Below, in pieces: positions 23,247-31,434 of a stretch of DNA of 64,000 bases. The notes under the pieces were generated by a model that was given only the letters and a program-made list of their open reading frames with translations, was not told where the DNA came from and ran no database searches. Each line of letters starts with the position of its first letter. Position 1 is the first letter of the stretch. This stretch comes from Escherichia coli (GTDB taxonomy: Bacteria; Pseudomonadota; Gammaproteobacteria; Enterobacterales; Enterobacteriaceae). The DNA lies in the NCBI RefSeq assembly GCF_013315695.1, contig NZ_CP054353.1; one strand, written 5' to 3'. A program made the translations under genes and the position numbers.

Positions 23247-23535
23247 AGTCGAACGTGAACGACGTAAGGCGCAACTGCTTAGCCAGATCCAGCAACAACG
23301 GCTGGATCTTTCTGCCAGTCGTCGTGAATGGCTGGAGGCAACAGGCGCTTACGATCGTCGCTGGAATATGCTGCTAAGTCTGCGCTCCTGGGCGCTGGTT
23401 GGCAGTAGCGTGATGGCTATCTGGACGATTCGTCATCCCAATATGCTGGTCCGCTGGGCCAGACGCGGTTTTGGTGTATGGAGCGCCTGGCGTCTGGTGA
23501 AAACAACCCTCAAGCAACAACAGCTTCGCGGTTAA
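23236..23535 (+). CDS. yqjK: Small membrane protein YqjK
   Basis: GTG start (VSSKVERERRKAQLL), 99 aa, overlapping the yqjE stop. Confidence 0.7.
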   Translation: MSSKVERERRKAQLLSQIQQQRLDLSASRREWLEATGAYDRRWNMLLSLRSWALVGSSVMAIWTIRHPNMLVRWARRGFGVWSAWRLVKTTLKQQQLRG

Positions 23536-23720
23536 CTTCCTCTCTGGCCGGAGCCATTCCGGCCTTATCCCTCAAATTTTTTGAAGATTTTTGACAATTT
23601 TCCTTGCTAACAATCACGCTTCGCCACGTTTATGATTCTCTCCATCGACAGCAACGACGCTAATAGCGCGCCCTTGCACAAAAAACAATCAGCAGCCTGA
23701 GCGGCGCAGTGGAGAGTATG

Positions 23721-24113
23721 ATGAAAAAATTAGAAGATGTTGGTGTACTGGTAGCGCGTATTTTAATGCCGATTCTGTTTATTACCGCAGGCTGGGGAAA
23801 AATTACTGGCTACGCGGGTACCCAACAATATATGGAAGCAATGGGCGTCCCAGGTTTTATGCTGCCGCTGGTGATTCTGCTTGAGTTTGGTGGTGGTCTG
23901 GCAATCCTGTTCGGTTTCCTGACTCGCACCACAGCCCTGTTTACTGCGGGCTTTACGCTGCTGACGGCATTTTTATTTCACAGCAACTTTGCTGAAGGCG
24001 TCAACTCGCTGATGTTCATGAAAAACCTGACGATTTCTGGCGGGTTCTTGCTGCTGGCGATTACCGGTCCGGGCGCGTATAGCATCGACCGCCTGCTGAA
24101 TAAAAAGTGGTAA
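23721..24113 (+). CDS. yqjF: DoxX-family membrane oxidoreductase
   Basis: ORF 23709..24113; start MKKLEDVGVL gives 130 aa; four TM segments. Confidence 0.8.
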   Translation: MKKLEDVGVLVARILMPILFITAGWGKITGYAGTQQYMEAMGVPGFMLPLVILLEFGGGLAILFGFLTRTTALFTAGFTLLTAFLFHSNFAEGVNSLMFMKNLTISGGFLLLAITGPGAYSIDRLLNKKW

Positions 24114-24136
24114 GCACGCGCTATACTTAACAATAA

Positions 24137-24164
24137 AAAACGAGGAGGAAGCTCCTCGTTTTTG
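24137..24164 (+). terminator. Rho-independent terminator after yqjF
   Basis: AAAAACGAGGAG-GAA-GCTCCTCGTTTTT perfect hairpin with T-run. Confidence 0.65.
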
Positions 24165-24182
24165 CTATTGGAGGAGAGAAAA

Positions 24183-25169
24183 ATGGGTCAACTGATTGAC
24201 GGCGTCTGGCATGACACCTGGTACGATACCAAATCTACCGGCGGTAAATTTCAACGTTCAGCTTCCGCATTTCGTAACTGGCTCACTGCCGATGGCGCGC
24301 CAGGCCCCACTGGCACAGGCGGTTTTGCCGCAGAGAAAGATCGTTATCATCTCTATGTTTCACTCGCCTGCCCGTGGGCGCACCGCACGCTGATCATGCG
24401 TAAACTCAAAGGACTGGAACCGTTTATTTCCGTTTCCGTAGTGAACCCGCTGATGCTGGAAAACGGCTGGACCTTTGATGACAGTTTTCCGGGAGCAACC
24501 GGAGACACGCTCTATCAACATGAATTTCTGTATCAGCTTTATCTCCACGCCGATCCACACTACAGCGGACGAGTGACTGTTCCCGTGCTGTGGGACAAAA
24601 AGAACCACACCATCGTCAGCAACGAATCAGCAGAAATCATACGCATGTTCAATACCGCGTTTGATGCGCTGGGCGCGAAAGCGGGTGATTACTACCCACC
24701 AGCCCTGCAAACGAAAATTGACGAACTTAACGGCTGGATTTATGACACTGTTAACAACGGCGTGTATAAAGCTGGTTTTGCCACCAGCCAGCAAGCTTAC
24801 GACGAGGCGGTGGCGAAAGTGTTTGAATCGCTGGCGCGACTGGAGCAGATTTTAGGCCAGCATCGTTACCTGACCGGCAATCAGCTAACCGAAGCCGATA
24901 TTCGCCTGTGGACCACGCTGGTCCGTTTTGATCCGGTGTATGTGACCCACTTCAAGTGTGATAAGCACCGCATCAGCGATTACCTGAATCTGTATGGCTT
25001 CCTGCGCGATATCTACCAGATGCCGGGAATTGCCGAAACAGTCAATTTCGATCACATCCGTAATCATTACTTCCGCAGCCATAAGACCATCAACCCTACG
25101 GGGATTATTTCAATTGGTCCGTGGCAGGATCTCGATGAACCGCATGGACGAGATGTTCGCTTCGGTTAA
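24183..25169 (+). CDS. yqjG: Glutathionyl-hydroquinone reductase (Xi-class GST)
   Basis: ORF 24162..25169; start MGQLIDGVWHD gives 328 aa; CPWAHR active-site motif. Confidence 0.9.
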   Translation: MGQLIDGVWHDTWYDTKSTGGKFQRSASAFRNWLTADGAPGPTGTGGFAAEKDRYHLYVSLACPWAHRTLIMRKLKGLEPFISVSVVNPLMLENGWTFDDSFPGATGDTLYQHEFLYQLYLHADPHYSGRVTVPVLWDKKNHTIVSNESAEIIRMFNTAFDALGAKAGDYYPPALQTKIDELNGWIYDTVNNGVYKAGFATSQQAYDEAVAKVFESLARLEQILGQHRYLTGNQLTEADIRLWTTLVRFDPVYVTHFKCDKHRISDYLNLYGFLRDIYQMPGIAETVNFDHIRNHYFRSHKTINPTGIISIGPWQDLDEPHGRDVRFG

Positions 25170-25221
25170 AAAAAGGCACCTTACGAGGTGCCTCTGATAA
25201 TTAGCTAAGTGCGTGTTGTTC

Positions 25222-25322
25222 ATGTCGGATGCGGCGTGAACGCCTTATCAAACCTACAAAACATTTATATTCAATATGTTGCAATGACCGCGCAGGCCAG
25301 ATAAGCGTAGCGCATCTGGCAA
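25222..25322. repeat. REP element cluster
   Basis: GTCGGATGCGGCGTGAACGCCTTATC and CAGATAAGCGTAGCGCATCTGGC units. Confidence 0.6.
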
Positions 25323-25451
25323 TTTTGCGCTTGCCCTTATCCTTCACAGCGCCTTATTAATTCATCGAGATAATATTTACTGCCATTTCATTCACGTCTA
25401 TTCTTAATTTGCTGCTTTAAAAACAAGTGATTGAGCAAAATTGAGGCAAAA

Positions 25452-25817
25452 ATGGACTGGTATCTGAAAGTACTAAAAAATTATGTCGGTTTCCGGGGTC
25501 GTGCGCGGCGCAAAGAGTACTGGATGTTTATTCTGGTCAACATCATCTTTACGTTCGTGCTGGGGCTACTGGATAAAATGTTAGGCTGGCAACGTGCCGG
25601 TGGCGAAGGCATCCTGACGACAATCTACGGTATTCTGGTGTTTTTACCATGGTGGGCAGTTCAGTTCCGCCGCCTGCACGACACCGACCGCTCGGCGTGG
25701 TGGGCACTGTTGTTCTTAATCCCGTTTATCGGCTGGCTTATTATCATCGTCTTTAACTGTCAGGCGGGTACGCCAGGCGAAAACCGCTTTGGACCAGATC
25801 CGAAACTGGAACCTTAA
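25452..25817 (+). CDS. yhaH: DUF805 inner membrane protein
   Basis: ORF 25431..25817; start MDWYLKVLKNYVGF gives 121 aa. Confidence 0.8.
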   Translation: MDWYLKVLKNYVGFRGRARRKEYWMFILVNIIFTFVLGLLDKMLGWQRAGGEGILTTIYGILVFLPWWAVQFRRLHDTDRSAWWALLFLIPFIGWLIIIVFNCQAGTPGENRFGPDPKLEP

Positions 25818-26058
25818 AACAAATCTCCTCGCCGGATGTCTGACTCATCCGGCTTTTATCATTATGTTGATGAATAAATAATCTACTAATGTTTATTTAA
25901 ATTATTTCAATGTCGTTATATAAATTACATATAAAAAACGACCATGTATTTATCTTAAATATCAAAACCTTTATAACATCCGAAAAAGAAAGATACGAAT
26001 AGCATTTACTCCATCCCCGGAATAGACTTTCGCAACTTTTAATTAAAGGGATGTTTTT

Positions 26059-26415
26059 ATGCAGTGGTATTTAGCCGTATTAAAAAATTATGTTGGTTTC
26101 TCTGGTCGTGCACGTCGTAAAGAGTACTGGATGTTTACTCTGATTAACGCCATCGTCGGCGCTATTATCAATGTCATTCAATTGATTTTAGGTTTAGAGT
26201 TTCCATTCCTTTCTCTCATTTACCTGGCAGCAACAATCATTCCGGTCATTGCTCTGTGCGTTCGTCGTCTGCACGATACTGACCGTTCAGGTGCGTGGGC
26301 GCTTCTCTATCTGGTACCGGTCATTGGCTGGTTAGTTCTGTTTGTATTTGCCTGTTTAGAAGGCAATTCTGGCAGCAATCGTTACGGAAACGATCCGAAG
26401 TTTGGTTCAAATTAA
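26059..26415 (+). CDS. yhaI: DUF805 inner membrane protein, paralog of yhaH
   Basis: 118-aa ORF; shares WYLxVLKNYVGFxGRARRKEYWMF and RRLHDTDRS motifs with yhaH. Confidence 0.8.
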   Translation: MQWYLAVLKNYVGFSGRARRKEYWMFTLINAIVGAIINVIQLILGLEFPFLSLIYLAATIIPVIALCVRRLHDTDRSGAWALLYLVPVIGWLVLFVFACLEGNSGSNRYGNDPKFGSN

Positions 26416-26465
26416 TCTTAGAATTGGGGCGATATTTCGCCCCTTTTTATTAAAAATAACAAATA

Positions 26466-27362
26466 TTATTTTCCGCTAAAAAGTTTGGGAATTTCCCGCA
26501 GACACCAGGATTTCGCCTCCCCCATACTGTCACGACGCCAGGCCATAATAATATCGATCTCGCTGGTCGATTCCGGGCTGACGACACGCAACCGCCCTTC
26601 CGCAATATCTTTTTCGACCATCGGATACGGCATCGTCGCCACGCCAAGCCCCGCCAGTAATGCCTGACGTTTATCTTCAATCGTGCTCACCGTTAAACGC
26701 GGCTGTTTGTCCAGTAGCTGTACGGTCAATACCGGGCGCTCACGAGCGGTATCCGCCACCGCAATTCCACGATATTTCACGCGCGTCACTTCAGATAACG
26801 GTTCCGGCTCCTGATGAATCGGGTGATCAGGCGCGGCAACATAGACGTTCATTAAGGTATAGAGTTTGCGCGAGTTGATCTCCGACGAGGAGCGAAAATG
26901 CATATCCGGCGCGATAACAATATCCGCCCGCCCCTGCTCCAGCCGTTCCCACGCCCCTGCCAGCACTTCAGTGATGATTGCCAGTTGGGTATTGGCTTTT
27001 GCCGCCAGTTTGTCGATTAACGGGAAAAAGGCAGGTGTCGGTACCAGCGCTTCGGTCACAATGGTGAGATGCGTTTCCCAACCGCGCGCGAGAGCTTCCG
27101 CATCGGTAGTCAGTTTATCTGCGGCTTCCAGCAAAACGCGCCCTCGCTCCAGCAACATCCTCCCGACATTGGTGAATTTGGTGCGATGGCCCGAGCGGTC
27201 AAACAGCACCACATCCAGCTCTTCTTCCAGTTTTTGCATGGTGTAGCTAAGTGCGGAAGGCACGCGTCCCAGCTCATCCGCCGCCGCCGCAAAACTGCCC
27301 CGGCGATCGATCGCATCCATAACCCGTAGTGCTTCCAGCGTTAATGCCCTTTCTTTGGCCAT
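26466..27362 (-). CDS. yhaJ: LysR-family transcriptional regulator
   Basis: 298-aa ORF with N-terminal HTH; divergent from yhaK. Confidence 0.85.
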   Translation of the reverse strand: MAKERALTLEALRVMDAIDRRGSFAAAADELGRVPSALSYTMQKLEEELDVVLFDRSGHRTKFTNVGRMLLERGRVLLEAADKLTTDAEALARGWETHLTIVTEALVPTPAFFPLIDKLAAKANTQLAIITEVLAGAWERLEQGRADIVIAPDMHFRSSSEINSRKLYTLMNVYVAAPDHPIHQEPEPLSEVTRVKYRGIAVADTARERPVLTVQLLDKQPRLTVSTIEDKRQALLAGLGVATMPYPMVEKDIAEGRLRVVSPESTSEIDIIMAWRRDSMGEAKSWCLREIPKLFSGK

Positions 27363-27466
27363 TTCGTTCTCATTCAGGAAATTTGAACATACCGGGCAGA
27401 ATATCTGGCTAACAATGTAGCGTCCAGCCCCTTACCATAAAAGTAAGTAAAGAGAGGTCAAGAATT

Positions 27467-28168
27467 ATGATTACTACCCGAACTGCCAGGCAGTGTGGAC
27501 AAGCAGACTACGGATGGTTGCAGGCCCGGTATACTTTTTCCTTTGGACACTACTTCGACCCGAAATTGTTAGGCTATGCCTCCCTGCGCGTGCTTAACCA
27601 GGAAGTGCTGGCCCCAGGTGCCGCCTTTCAGCCGCGAACCTATCCCAAAGTCGATATTTTAAATGTGATTCTGGATGGAGAAGCTGAGTATCGCGACAGC
27701 GAAGGCAATCATGTTCAGACCAGCACTGGTGAGGTGTTGCTGCTCTCTACCCAGCCGGGTGTCAGCTATAGCGAACACAATCTCAGCAAAGACAAACCGT
27801 TAACGCGAATGCAGCTTTGGCTGGATGCCTGCCCACAACGAGAGAATCCGCTGATTCAAAAACTGGCGCTTAATATGAGCAAGCAGCAATTAATCGCCTC
27901 GCCAGAAGGTGGGATGGGAAGCCTGCAATTGCGCCAGCAAGTGTGGCTGCACCATATCGTGCTCGACAAAGGCGAAAGTGCGAATTTCCAGTTGCATGGG
28001 CCACGCGCGTATTTGCAATCGATTCACGGGAAATTTCATGCGCTTACGCATCATGAAGAGAAAGCGGCGCTAACCTGCGGTGATGGGGCGTTTATTCGTG
28101 ACGAGGCTAACATTACGCTGGTTGCCGATTCCCCACTGCGCGCTTTGCTGATAGATTTGCCTGTCTAG
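27467..28168 (+). CDS. yhaK: Pirin-like bicupin protein
   Basis: 233-aa ORF recognised as YhaK. Confidence 0.85.
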   Translation: MITTRTARQCGQADYGWLQARYTFSFGHYFDPKLLGYASLRVLNQEVLAPGAAFQPRTYPKVDILNVILDGEAEYRDSEGNHVQTSTGEVLLLSTQPGVSYSEHNLSKDKPLTRMQLWLDACPQRENPLIQKLALNMSKQQLIASPEGGMGSLQLRQQVWLHHIVLDKGESANFQLHGPRAYLQSIHGKFHALTHHEEKAALTCGDGAFIRDEANITLVADSPLRALLIDLPV

Positions 28169-28190
28169 TTGTTTTTACAGGGAGATGATG

Positions 28191-28355
28191 ATGAGTAAAA
28201 AATCGGCCAAAAAGCGTCAGCCAGTGAAGCCCGTGGTGGCGAAAGAACCTGCTCGCACCGCCAATAATTTTGGTTATGAAGAGATGTTGAGCGAGCTGGA
28301 AGCCATCGTCGCGGATGCTGAAACGCGTTTAGCCGAGGATGAAGCTACCGCGTAA
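28191..28355 (+). CDS. yhaL: Small protein YhaL (54 aa)
   Basis: Short ORF MSKKSAKKRQPVKPVVAKEPARTANNFGYEEMLSELEAIVADAETRLAEDEATA, below the ORF-track size cut-off; coordinates hand-counted (plus or minus 1). Confidence 0.55.
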   Translation: MSKKSAKKRQPVKPVVAKEPARTANNFGYEEMLSELEAIVADAETRLAEDEATA

Positions 28356-28357
28356 AG

Positions 28358-28472
28358 ACAGGTGCCGGATGTGGCGTAAACGCCTTATCCGGCCTACAAA
28401 ACACAACAACATCAACAAATTGTGCAATTCGTAGGCCGGATAAGATGCGCCAGCATCGCATCCGGCACGATA
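28358..28472. repeat. REP element cluster (BIME-like)
   Basis: Three GCCGGATG / CATCCGGC-type palindromic units. Confidence 0.6.
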
Positions 28473-28487
28473 CCCAAAACCGGGCGT

Positions 28488-29798
28488 TTATCTGGCCTTG
28501 CTCGCCATAATCTCGATAATCTGCCGATCCGTTTGCTGCATCGAATGGCTTGCTAACGCACACAGGTTGGCAATCGACTGCTCAACATCATGCGCCACAA
28601 TCCCTTCATTACCGGTTACGGCGGTATCATCCAGCGCCATTAACACCGCTTTCCACGCAGCCGAAGCACTGGTCGAAACCTTCATCGCGCAGCTGTTCGA
28701 TGCACCATCGCAAATCATGCCACTGACATCGCCGATCATACTGCTGATCGCCATCGAGATGGTTTCATAACGCCCATCCACCAGCCATGCCATCCCGGCA
28801 GCGGCCCCCATTGCTGCGGTCGTTGCGGCACACAGCGCAGACAAACGCGGTAACTGGTTATGGATGTAAATCGCGCTCAAATGCGAAAGCATCAGCGCAC
28901 GCGCCAGCCGTTCATCATCCGCTCCGAAGTGTTCAGCTACCACCACCACGGGCATTGTTGCGGTGATCCCCTGGTTACCCGAGCCGGAGTTACTCATTGC
29001 CGGAAGCGTAGCGCCGCCCATACGCGCATCGGATGCCGCGCTGGTACGAATCACAATGGATGAAGAGAGATCTTTCGCCAGCAAGCCGCGCGCGCACTGT
29101 TTTTCCAGCGTCGCACCAATATGCAGCCCCCAGTTACCGCTCAAACCTTCCTGCGATAACGCACAATTTAACTTCGCAGAATCGAGAATAAAGCGGATCG
29201 CCGCAAACGGGACTTCATTAACGAACTTCAGGATCTCAGCCAGCGTCGTTCTGGAAAGCACCGTCAGCGGCGACTCTTGCTCGCCCTCTGTCACACACGC
29301 CTGCTGGGTAAACACCACACCATTGTGCGTCTCAACATGCACAATGTTGGTATGCCCGCCGACGATGGTGACACACGCCCACTTCTCACCGTTCCAGACT
29401 TTGGCGCGTGAGAAGAGGATTTCATCGCAAGGTTCCTGGATCTTAACTGAGACTTTCCCCGCCGCCAGCAGTGCTTTGGCATCGGAAATTGCCTGCGCAG
29501 TTGCGTCTTTCAGCACTTCCAGCCCGGCGTTAGCATTTCCACCTAACGCTCCCAGCGCCGCCGCAATTGGCAGCCCCACCATTCCTGTACCAGGAACGGT
29601 GACACCCAGACCGTTCTTCATCAGATTTGGCGAAACCCAGGCTTCTACACGTTCAACCGGACCTTCCAGTTCTGCCGCAGCAACCGCCGCCGCCAGCGCC
29701 AGTGAAATCGGTTCAGTACATCCCAGCGCCGGTTTTACTTCCTCCTGAACGGCGAGGATGTAACGCTGCCATAACGGATTTAAAGTCGAATCAAACAT
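28488..29798 (-). CDS. cyuA: L-cysteine desulfidase
   Basis: 436-aa ORF recognised as YhaM/CyuA. Confidence 0.85.
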
Positions 29799-31157: not shown

Positions 31158-31434
31158 AATTTCTCGCTCAATATTTTGTAGGGCTTATTATTTTTTTCCG
31201 AGCCGCATCAAGGCGATATGCGGTCTACGTTTTTGCAGGCGAGTTATTAGAATAAAGAAATGATACGCGTGAGATCAGAGAAAATCTTCACAATCAAGAC
31301 TTTTAAATAGCAATTGTGGGTAATAATTTTCTATTAAATTGAGTTAATAGAAATAATTATTCTCTATTTGCGGCAGATCACAATAAAAAAGGGTGCACAT
31401 TTTGTGCACCCAAGGATGATAGCTGACAGCAATG

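Follow-up and report, generated by a model that had tools for sequence, protein, structure and literature searches.

The yqjF-yhaK region of an Escherichia coli chromosome: the known YhaJ regulon, with a candidate second operator region beside each YhaJ box

LysR-type regulators of aromatic catabolism, such as BenM at benA, CbnR at cbnA, AtzR and DntR, act from a recognition site near position -65 of the promoter and from activation sites at about -45 to -30. The subject of this report is a regulator of the same family, YhaJ, and its targets in a 64,000-nucleotide stretch of the Escherichia coli chromosome (NCBI RefSeq assembly GCF_013315695.1, contig NZ_CP054353.1), referred to below as the window. 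The interval of interest extends from position 23536, the first base past the yqjK stop codon, to 27466, the last base 5' of the yhaK start, and contains yqjF, yqjG and the gene for YhaJ itself. The YhaJ regulon is the basis of biosensors for dinitrotoluene (DNT) and landmines.

The control of yqjF by YhaJ has been studied in some detail. In a screen of 150 regulator deletions (Palevsky et al. 2016), only the yhaJ deletion abolished yqjF induction, and the response was lost to DNT, trinitrotoluene, hydroquinone, 1,2,4-trihydroxybenzene and catechol (PMC5031710). In electrophoretic mobility shift assays (EMSA), YhaJ shifted promoter fragments of yqjF, yhaK, ybiJ, yhhW, ygiD and yceP; its 16-bp motif has TCA-N7-TGA symmetry, and a single-base mutation in it removes 98% of yqjF induction (PMC5031710). 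Deletion of yhaK raises yqjF induction 66-fold, since the inducer persists (PMC5031710). Chromatin immunoprecipitation with sequencing (ChIP-seq) located YhaJ on yqjF and yhaK in enterohaemorrhagic (EHEC) and uropathogenic (UPEC) E. coli (PMC6765310), and crystals of the effector domain hold methylhydroquinone, an analogue of the DNT metabolite 2,4,5-trihydroxytoluene (PMC10562874). The gene cyuP (yhaO) is cited in PMC5031710 as being under direct YhaJ control in EHEC. LysR regulators are tetramers, which usually touch a second site at about -45 to -30, and in a 2025 paper on the DNA-binding domain the activation-binding sites of YhaJ are still unassigned (PMC11739112).

The regulation of yqjF and yhaK by YhaJ is therefore already known, and the locus described here re-identifies a well-studied regulon, of which it is very probably the chromosomal core. 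The K-12, EHEC and UPEC regulon comprises yqjF, yhaK, ybiJ, yhhW, ygiD and bssS (PMC5031710, PMC6765310), and the window has the same genes in the same order. The encoded regulator is identical to K-12 YhaJ in 297 of 298 residues, with N296S as the sole change, and its gene occupies the same genomic position. A prediction made earlier from the sequence alone held that YhaJ drives yqjF in response to DNT-derived hydroquinones. This agrees with the yhaJ-deletion, EMSA and box-mutation data (PMC5031710), with the ChIP-seq data (PMC6765310) and with the effector structure (PMC10562874), and the expectation that YhaJ controls yqjF and yhaK here too is supported by transfer from the near-identical alleles of K-12, EHEC and UPEC. 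What is added by the present analysis, namely an operator map, a natural variant at position 23597 and the separation of yqjG, consists of small testable additions, not discoveries.

YhaJ recognition boxes in two promoters

One YhaJ box lies upstream of yqjF and another in the spacer between the divergent genes yhaJ and yhaK (Table 1). The yqjF box begins with the 13-mer TCAAATTTTTTGA at 23572, and its full 16 bp are identical to those of K-12. TCA-N7-TGA occurs exactly once in each spacer, where 0.04 (yqjF) and 0.03 (yhaJ-yhaK) occurrences are expected from composition; both spacers carried it together in 0.1% of shuffles. Over the whole window the pattern is not enriched (18 matches against 16 expected), and therefore only its position is informative. 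The looser LysR pattern T-N11-A, by which the original prediction was to be checked, proved uninformative, with 12 and 8 occurrences against 11.4 and 8.0 expected; because it is found at chance frequency in both spacers, the bare pattern was rejected as a test.

The conservation of the boxes was examined in 80 loci, one from each of differing Enterobacteriaceae species, which were fetched with YhaJ as the query and of which 76 include the sequence upstream of yqjF. YhaJ is 92-100% identical across the 80 species. All 80 species share an unchanged TCA-N7-TGA in the yhaJ-yhaK spacer, and within the 13-mer only one base varies at all. Upstream of yqjF, the TCA and the TTGA of the box are kept in 75 of 76, the exception being a truncated contig. 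The gene order yqjE-yqjK-yqjF-yqjG-(yhaH)-yhaJ<>yhaK is kept in about 75 of the 80 species, and the linkage is therefore ancient, not accidental. It has also to be considered that yqjF-yqjG stand near yhaJ-yhaK by an accident of gene order, the two units being functionally unrelated here. Two unrelated DUF805 genes of variable presence lie between the units, and YhaJ also controls the distant ybiJ, yhhW and ygiD, so that linkage is unneeded. Such an accident is nevertheless most improbable in view of the conserved linkage and of the box, the identical 9-mer and the spacing that both promoters share, and published results from yhaJ deletion and EMSA, which demonstrate direct control, contradict it.

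The pattern is not found at every reported target. The K-12 bssS promoter contains no exact YhaJ box. The gene cyuP is located just past yhaK-yhaL-cyuA, and its upstream region (31158-31434) has no exact TCA-N7-TGA, its only near matches being those at 31294 and 31330, with one mismatch each.

A candidate second operator region

The yqjF promoter is divided sharply into variable and conserved parts. Species differ freely in the middle 7 bp of the box and in the 8 bp after it, and the 21-bp block that follows, ACAGTTTTCCTTGCTAACAAT, is essentially invariant: all its columns are at least 80% conserved, and most of them at least 95%. On its 3' side, 14 variable bp precede the TAnnnT of the -10 at 23631-23636, which is again conserved across species. 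The transcription start of yqjF is inferred to be near 23643, which would put the centre of the box at about -65 and the block at -49 to -29. In the yhaK promoter, where the inferred -10 is conserved as TA(A/C)CAT, the block GGCAGAATATCTGGCTAACAAT is located in the corresponding place, and transcription is predicted to begin at about 27445. Each block contains a TCA-like half-site at 22 bp from the box and, at exactly 34 bp from the box start, the 9-mer GCTAACAAT, which overlaps the -35. This 9-mer is found exactly twice in the window, both times at that distance from a YhaJ box, and an in-register exact run of 9 was reached in only 9 of 100,000 shuffles; at the yhaK promoter all but one of the 80 species have it unaltered. 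The K-12 yhhW and ybiJ promoters have GGTCAATT, in which TCAA starts 22 bp after the box and forms a second copy of the box's left half-site. The blocks 3' of both boxes, kept in 76-80 species, are tentatively read as the activation-binding site of YhaJ. The A at 23597 would then shift the half-site of yqjF toward the TCAA form of yhhW, ybiJ and the laboratory-evolved promoter C55, and lineages that carry it would express yqjF above the K-12 level, either basally or upon induction. This whole reading is given slightly less than an even chance.

At 23597, a position within the otherwise invariant block, the window has A. The base is G in K-12, O157, a B2 strain, a further E. coli reference and E. 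albertii, and in almost every other species. The exact 34-mer with A (window 23586-23619) is present in 94 of 5426 complete E. coli genomes (about 1.7%), including SMS-3-5 and ST648-type strains, and the full 188-bp yqjF promoter allele of the window in only five. This allele differs from that of K-12 by 8 substitutions and 2 indels and is mosaic-like, with the B2-type spacer CACGCTTCG, yet K-12-type sequence upstream. The yhaJ-yhaK spacer has a single difference from K-12, which is outside the operator.

C55 is a yqjF promoter evolved in the laboratory for DNT and landmine biosensors; its sequence was taken from a plasmid file in the supplement of PMC8882911 (supplementary file 2) and aligned to K-12. 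It shares with the window the A at the equivalent of 23597. Together with an A>T substitution at 23594, the G>A at 23597 converts GACAG into GTCAA, the form that yhhW and ybiJ have at this offset; GCTAACAAT, the other bases of the block and the -10 TATGAT remain unchanged. The change at 23594 is peculiar to C55, as are an A>G in the recognition box, a T>C at 23589 and further changes in the leader, the discriminator and the bases beside the -10; the window has none of these. According to a preprint (10.1101/2023.07.28.550952), the evolved mutations F124, F128 and F133 each strongly enhance the DNT response when tested singly and in combination raise the background 250-fold, and the recognition-box change F138 lowers the response. 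The identity of F124 with position 23597 is probable but not certain. The enhanced response of the clustered mutations is consistent with a stronger activation half-site; the explanations in the preprint itself differ, and invoke -35 strength and sigma-32 competition (10.1101/2023.07.28.550952). With F124 at 23597, natural promoter alleles would already carry one response-enhancing change that was found by directed evolution.

Several points weigh against the block being a YhaJ site. The 9-mer GCTAACAAT is absent from the K-12 ybiJ, yhhW, ygiD and bssS promoters and therefore does not mark the regulon in general; it may represent a promoter element or another factor's site instead of a contact common to YhaJ targets. 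Conservation runs so high across the entire yhaJ-yhaK spacer that by itself it singles out no sub-sites there. EcoCyc-type predictions place a sigma-70 -35 at TTGACA (23591-23596) and add sigma-32 promoters, which would mean a different geometry (10.1101/2023.07.28.550952). The count from the ATG gives 125, 128, 133 and 138, so that the F124 of the preprint is one base off for 23597.

The first of these points leads to an alternative in which the GCTAACAAT block is a core-promoter feature or another regulator's site, and YhaJ acts via TCA-N7-TGA alone. The overlap of GCTAACAAT with the predicted -35, CTAACA, and its lack in four other YhaJ-dependent promoters are as this alternative would have it, and the 9-mer was left untouched through several rounds of promoter evolution, as an essential -35 would also be. 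CTAACA is, however, a poor -35, and such weak hexamers are not normally invariant over 76-80 species without some other constraint. The block also runs on without a gap from the TCA-like half-site at +22, in which laboratory mutations alter the response, and LysR tetramers normally contact a second site at about -45 to -30 (PMC11739112). The alternative is thus possible, but somewhat doubtful.

With the blocks taken as activation-binding sites, the following mechanism is proposed. YhaJ would bind TCA-N7-TGA upstream of yqjF and within the yhaJ-yhaK spacer, as has been shown in K-12, EHEC and UPEC. Its effector domain would take up hydroxylated benzenes, among them hydroquinone, methylhydroquinone, 1,2,4-benzenetriol and 2,4,5-trihydroxytoluene, the last of which E. 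coli makes from dinitrotoluene. Effector-bound YhaJ would activate yqjF, encoding a DoxX membrane protein, and yhaK, encoding a pirin-like bicupin that would help to clear the inducer. Both promoters would have the LysR layout, with the recognition site at about -65, a second region of 21-22 bp at about -49 to -29 and a TAnnnT -10 located 18 bp on. The second region would consist of the TCA-like half-site at +22 and of GCTAACAAT over the weak -35 CTAACA, and the effector would cause the downstream dimer of YhaJ to shift inside it, so that RNA polymerase could use this -35. The same operator, in the yhaJ leader, may provide autoregulation, and yqjG would be transcribed alone from a sigma-S-like promoter, having the quinone theme in common with the other genes. 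The added detail is of modest practical value: it offers a testable YhaJ operator map (box, +22 half-site and GCTAACAAT over the -35), which was missing according to PMC11739112.

Some other elements of the yqjF promoter are noted here. The hexamer TTGACA at 23591-23596 is less likely to be the true -35, since its TT is unconserved across species and C55 breaks it (TTGTCA) yet gains activity. The sequence TCTCTCCATCGACAGCA at 23637-23653, just 3' of the -10, is highly conserved across species. It includes a second GACAG, 53 bp after that of the upstream block, and C55 has G>A in both copies; TCTCTCCATCGACAGCA may serve as a third contact for the regulator, or it may be conserved as the initially transcribed sequence. 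A search of 23000-28700 against Rfam found no RNA family in the yqjF leader and gave only sub-threshold matches resembling repetitive extragenic palindromes (REP; naRNA4), and the leader folds no better than shuffled sequences (z +0.9). The hairpin just past the yqjK stop (Table 1) is a possible weak end of the yqjCDEK transcript.

The yhaJ leader and the separation of yqjG

The -10 of the candidate yhaJ promoter (Table 1) overlaps the yhaK -10 on the opposite strand, and with transcription predicted to begin at about 27427 (minus strand) the YhaJ box would occupy about +41 to +53 in the yhaJ leader. Among the evolved biosensor mutations, T133>A and A136>G, both in the box of the yhaJ promoter, raise reporter output, and C50>A and A51>G likewise increase it (PMC8882911). 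The latter two map 7-8 bp upstream of the candidate yhaJ -35. The authors of PMC8882911 take the mutations in the box and promoter as a hint of YhaJ autoregulation, and on this arrangement autoregulation via an operator in the yhaJ leader is plausible.

The gene yqjG was assigned by the original prediction to a quinone-detoxification theme around YhaJ. The theme is reasonable. Membership of yqjG in the YhaJ module, however, rests on the theme, and a terminator and a putative -10 of its own intervene. The -10, GCTATACTTAA, is the sole match in the window (0.21 expected) to the sigma-S -10 consensus KCTAYRCTTAA. At 8 nt past the yqjF stop, 58 of 76 species have CTATACT and most others a near variant. 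The hairpin of the terminator is kept in nearly all species, with arms that differ yet still pair. Because the conserved terminator and the sigma-S-like -10 separate yqjG from yqjF, the link of yqjG to YhaJ is thematic. The 69-bp spacer between the two genes contains no YhaJ box. No report of YhaJ control of yqjG was found, the name having no occurrence in PMC6765310 and PMC8882911, and a literature search on RpoS control of yqjG gave nothing usable. Thus, yqjG is probably a separate transcription unit, with its own sigma-S-like promoter 3' of the yqjF stop. A point against this arrangement is that the predicted start of yqjG transcription, at about 24134, is upstream of the terminator hairpin, which is awkward for a working promoter.

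A single YhaJ-driven operon of yqjF and yqjG, with the reductase induced together with yqjF, appears unlikely. The two genes are on the same strand only 69 bp apart, are adjacent in nearly all 80 species and share quinone-related chemistry (PDB 3r3e family); intrinsic terminators, furthermore, are seldom 100% efficient. These arguments are opposed by the strength of the hairpin and T-run between the genes (-22 kcal/mol, z -4.55) and its retention in nearly all species, by the conserved sigma-S-like -10 just past the yqjF stop, and by the fact that yqjG is not named among the YhaJ targets in PMC6765310 or PMC8882911. Co-regulation of yqjG with yqjF should not be assumed.

Transcripts from the GCTATACTTAA promoter would open with a terminator-like stem-loop. 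A 5' stabiliser, an attenuator and a terminator are candidate roles for this hairpin. An anti-Shine-Dalgarno role was considered and dropped, as the hairpin is retained even in species whose stem sequences are unrelated. The yqjF-yqjG spacer contains REP-like or other palindromic insertions of 140-260 bp in loci L007, L010, L011, L025, L044 and L056 of the species set, and around some insertions the terminator hairpin is duplicated on both sides of the insert. In the window, REP-like palindromes (sub-threshold Rfam naRNA4) are located at 25218-25254, in the yqjG-yhaH spacer, and at 28350-28497, between yhaL and cyuA; these REP-like elements account for many extra BLAST places per genome.

Gene content and relation to known systems

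Over 6 kb the region matches five complete genomes at 100% identity, one of them from the blood isolate AF3, and nearly all other complete E. coli genomes at 95-99%. The region is found in 5398 of the 5426 and is therefore part of the core genome, not a chance arrangement. Gene identities were taken from the list of open reading frames (ORFs), the RefSeq annotation of a 100%-identical genome and Pfam, all of which are concordant, and which bear out the description of yhaJ as a LysR gene divergent from the pirin-like yhaK; the spacer between the two is 104 bp. As had been predicted, yqjF, yhaJ and yhaK lie within 4 kb (3.75 kb between the start codons of yqjF and yhaK), and the ORFs are intact, every gene having its K-12 length without an internal stop. 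Two genes that the prediction left unmentioned, yhaH and yhaI, also sit inside the interval.

Table 1. Genes and regulatory elements of the yqjF-yhaK region (window coordinates)
Feature	Position	Strand	Sequence or product	Basis and remarks
Hairpin past yqjK	23546-23564	+	GGCCGGA-N5-TCCGGCC	Just past yqjK stop, without T-run; -14.1 kcal/mol, z -3.5; conserved among Escherichia alleles
YhaJ box, yqjF promoter	23572-23587 (TCA-N7-TGA 23572-23584)	+	TCAAATTTTTTGAAGA	Exact published 16-mer (PMC11739112, PMC5031710)
Invariant 21-bp block, yqjF promoter	23594-23614	+	ACAGTTTTCCTTGCTAACAAT = ACA(A/G)TTTTCCTTGCTAACAAT	Proposed YhaJ activation-binding region, about -49 to -29
Predicted sigma-70 yqjF promoter	23607-23636	+	CTAACA-18-TATGAT	Consensus scan, 9/12 matches
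yqjF	23721-24113	+	DoxX family inner-membrane protein, 130 aa	Protein identical to K-12
Sigma-S-like -10	24120-24130	+	GCTATACTTAA	Perfect match to KCTAYRCTTAA; candidate separate yqjG promoter
Intrinsic terminator	24136-24163	+	Hairpin and T-run	Scan; -22.1 kcal/mol, z -4.55
yqjG	24183-25169	+	Xi-class glutathione S-transferase (GST), glutathionyl-hydroquinone reductase, 328 aa	GST_N_2/GST_C_2; 3 substitutions vs K-12
yhaH	25452-25817	+	DUF805 membrane protein	Protein identical to K-12
yhaI	26059-26415	+	Second DUF805 gene	Divergent allele
yhaJ	26466-27362	-	LysR-type regulator, 298 aa	HTH_1 and LysR_substrate; N296S vs K-12
YhaJ box common to yhaK promoter and yhaJ leader	27374-27386	+	TCAGGAAATTTGA	TCA-N7-TGA pattern search
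Conserved block, yhaK promoter	27395-27416	+	GGCAGAATATCTGGCTAACAAT	Proposed activation-binding region; mean column identity 0.989
Inferred yhaK promoter	27409-27438	+	CTAACA-18-TACCAT	In-register alignment with yqjF promoter; below consensus-scan threshold
Candidate yhaJ promoter	27461-27434	-	TTGACC-16-TATGGT	Consensus scan; GGTCAA conserved
yhaK	27467-28168	+	Pirin-like bicupin, 233 aa	Pirin and Pirin_C_2; 5 substitutions vs K-12
yhaL	28191-28355	+	54-aa ORF	22 bp 3' of yhaK; RefSeq annotation

The genes were compared with those of K-12 MG1655 one by one, and the DNA identity of yqjF, yqjG, yhaH, yhaI, yhaJ and yhaK is 85-98%. YhaJ matches PF00126 (E 5e-17) and PF03466 (E 2e-19) in Pfam and, in the PDB, 8h58 (effector domain, E 8e-131) and 9irz (DNA-binding domain, E 1e-52), both of which are named YhaJ. 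YqjF belongs to DoxX (PF07681, E 2.5e-21), YqjG matches 3r3e/4g0i over residues 1-328 (E 2e-232), and YhaK has PF02678 and PF17954 and matches 2vec (E 9e-155). In NCBIfam no model specific to YhaJ, YqjF, YqjG or YhaK scored above its cut-off; the four were identified by comparison with K-12 and with PDB entries. The small gene yhaL has no Pfam family and is present in only part of the other Enterobacteriaceae species of the set; it is probably co-transcribed with yhaK.

The DUF805 genes are the variable part of the region. The DNA of yhaI is 85% identical to K-12, with 18 amino-acid changes, compared with 97-98% for the flanking genes. The gene (in the segment 25818-26465) is polymorphic within E. 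coli: among the 5426 complete genomes the window type (at least 95% identity) is found in 2323, with 130 more at 90-95%, the K-12 type (80-90% identity to the window) in 1953, and the segment is missing in about 1020. The other Enterobacteriaceae mostly have a single DUF805 gene at the locus, or none; yhaH is missing in 6 of the 80 species, and there is no evidence that it belongs to the YhaJ regulon. Indels separate the yqjG-yhaH spacer from its K-12 counterpart, and identity between the two is only 88%.

In comparison with the K-12 regulon, the window thus has an identical yqjF box 16-mer and differs by the G>A at 23597 and the divergent yhaI allele. The targets of YhaJ, which are small proteins of unclear enzymology (DoxX, pirin-like) and form no catabolic pathway, set it apart from the BenM, CbnR, AtzR and DntR systems, as does its control of at least six unlinked promoters, rather than of one adjacent operon. 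In common with these systems, YhaJ has a divergently oriented regulator gene, a dyad T-N11-A recognition site and an aromatic effector in the cleft of its effector domain, and it would also share with them a putative weaker second site, about two helical turns downstream and over a poor -35.

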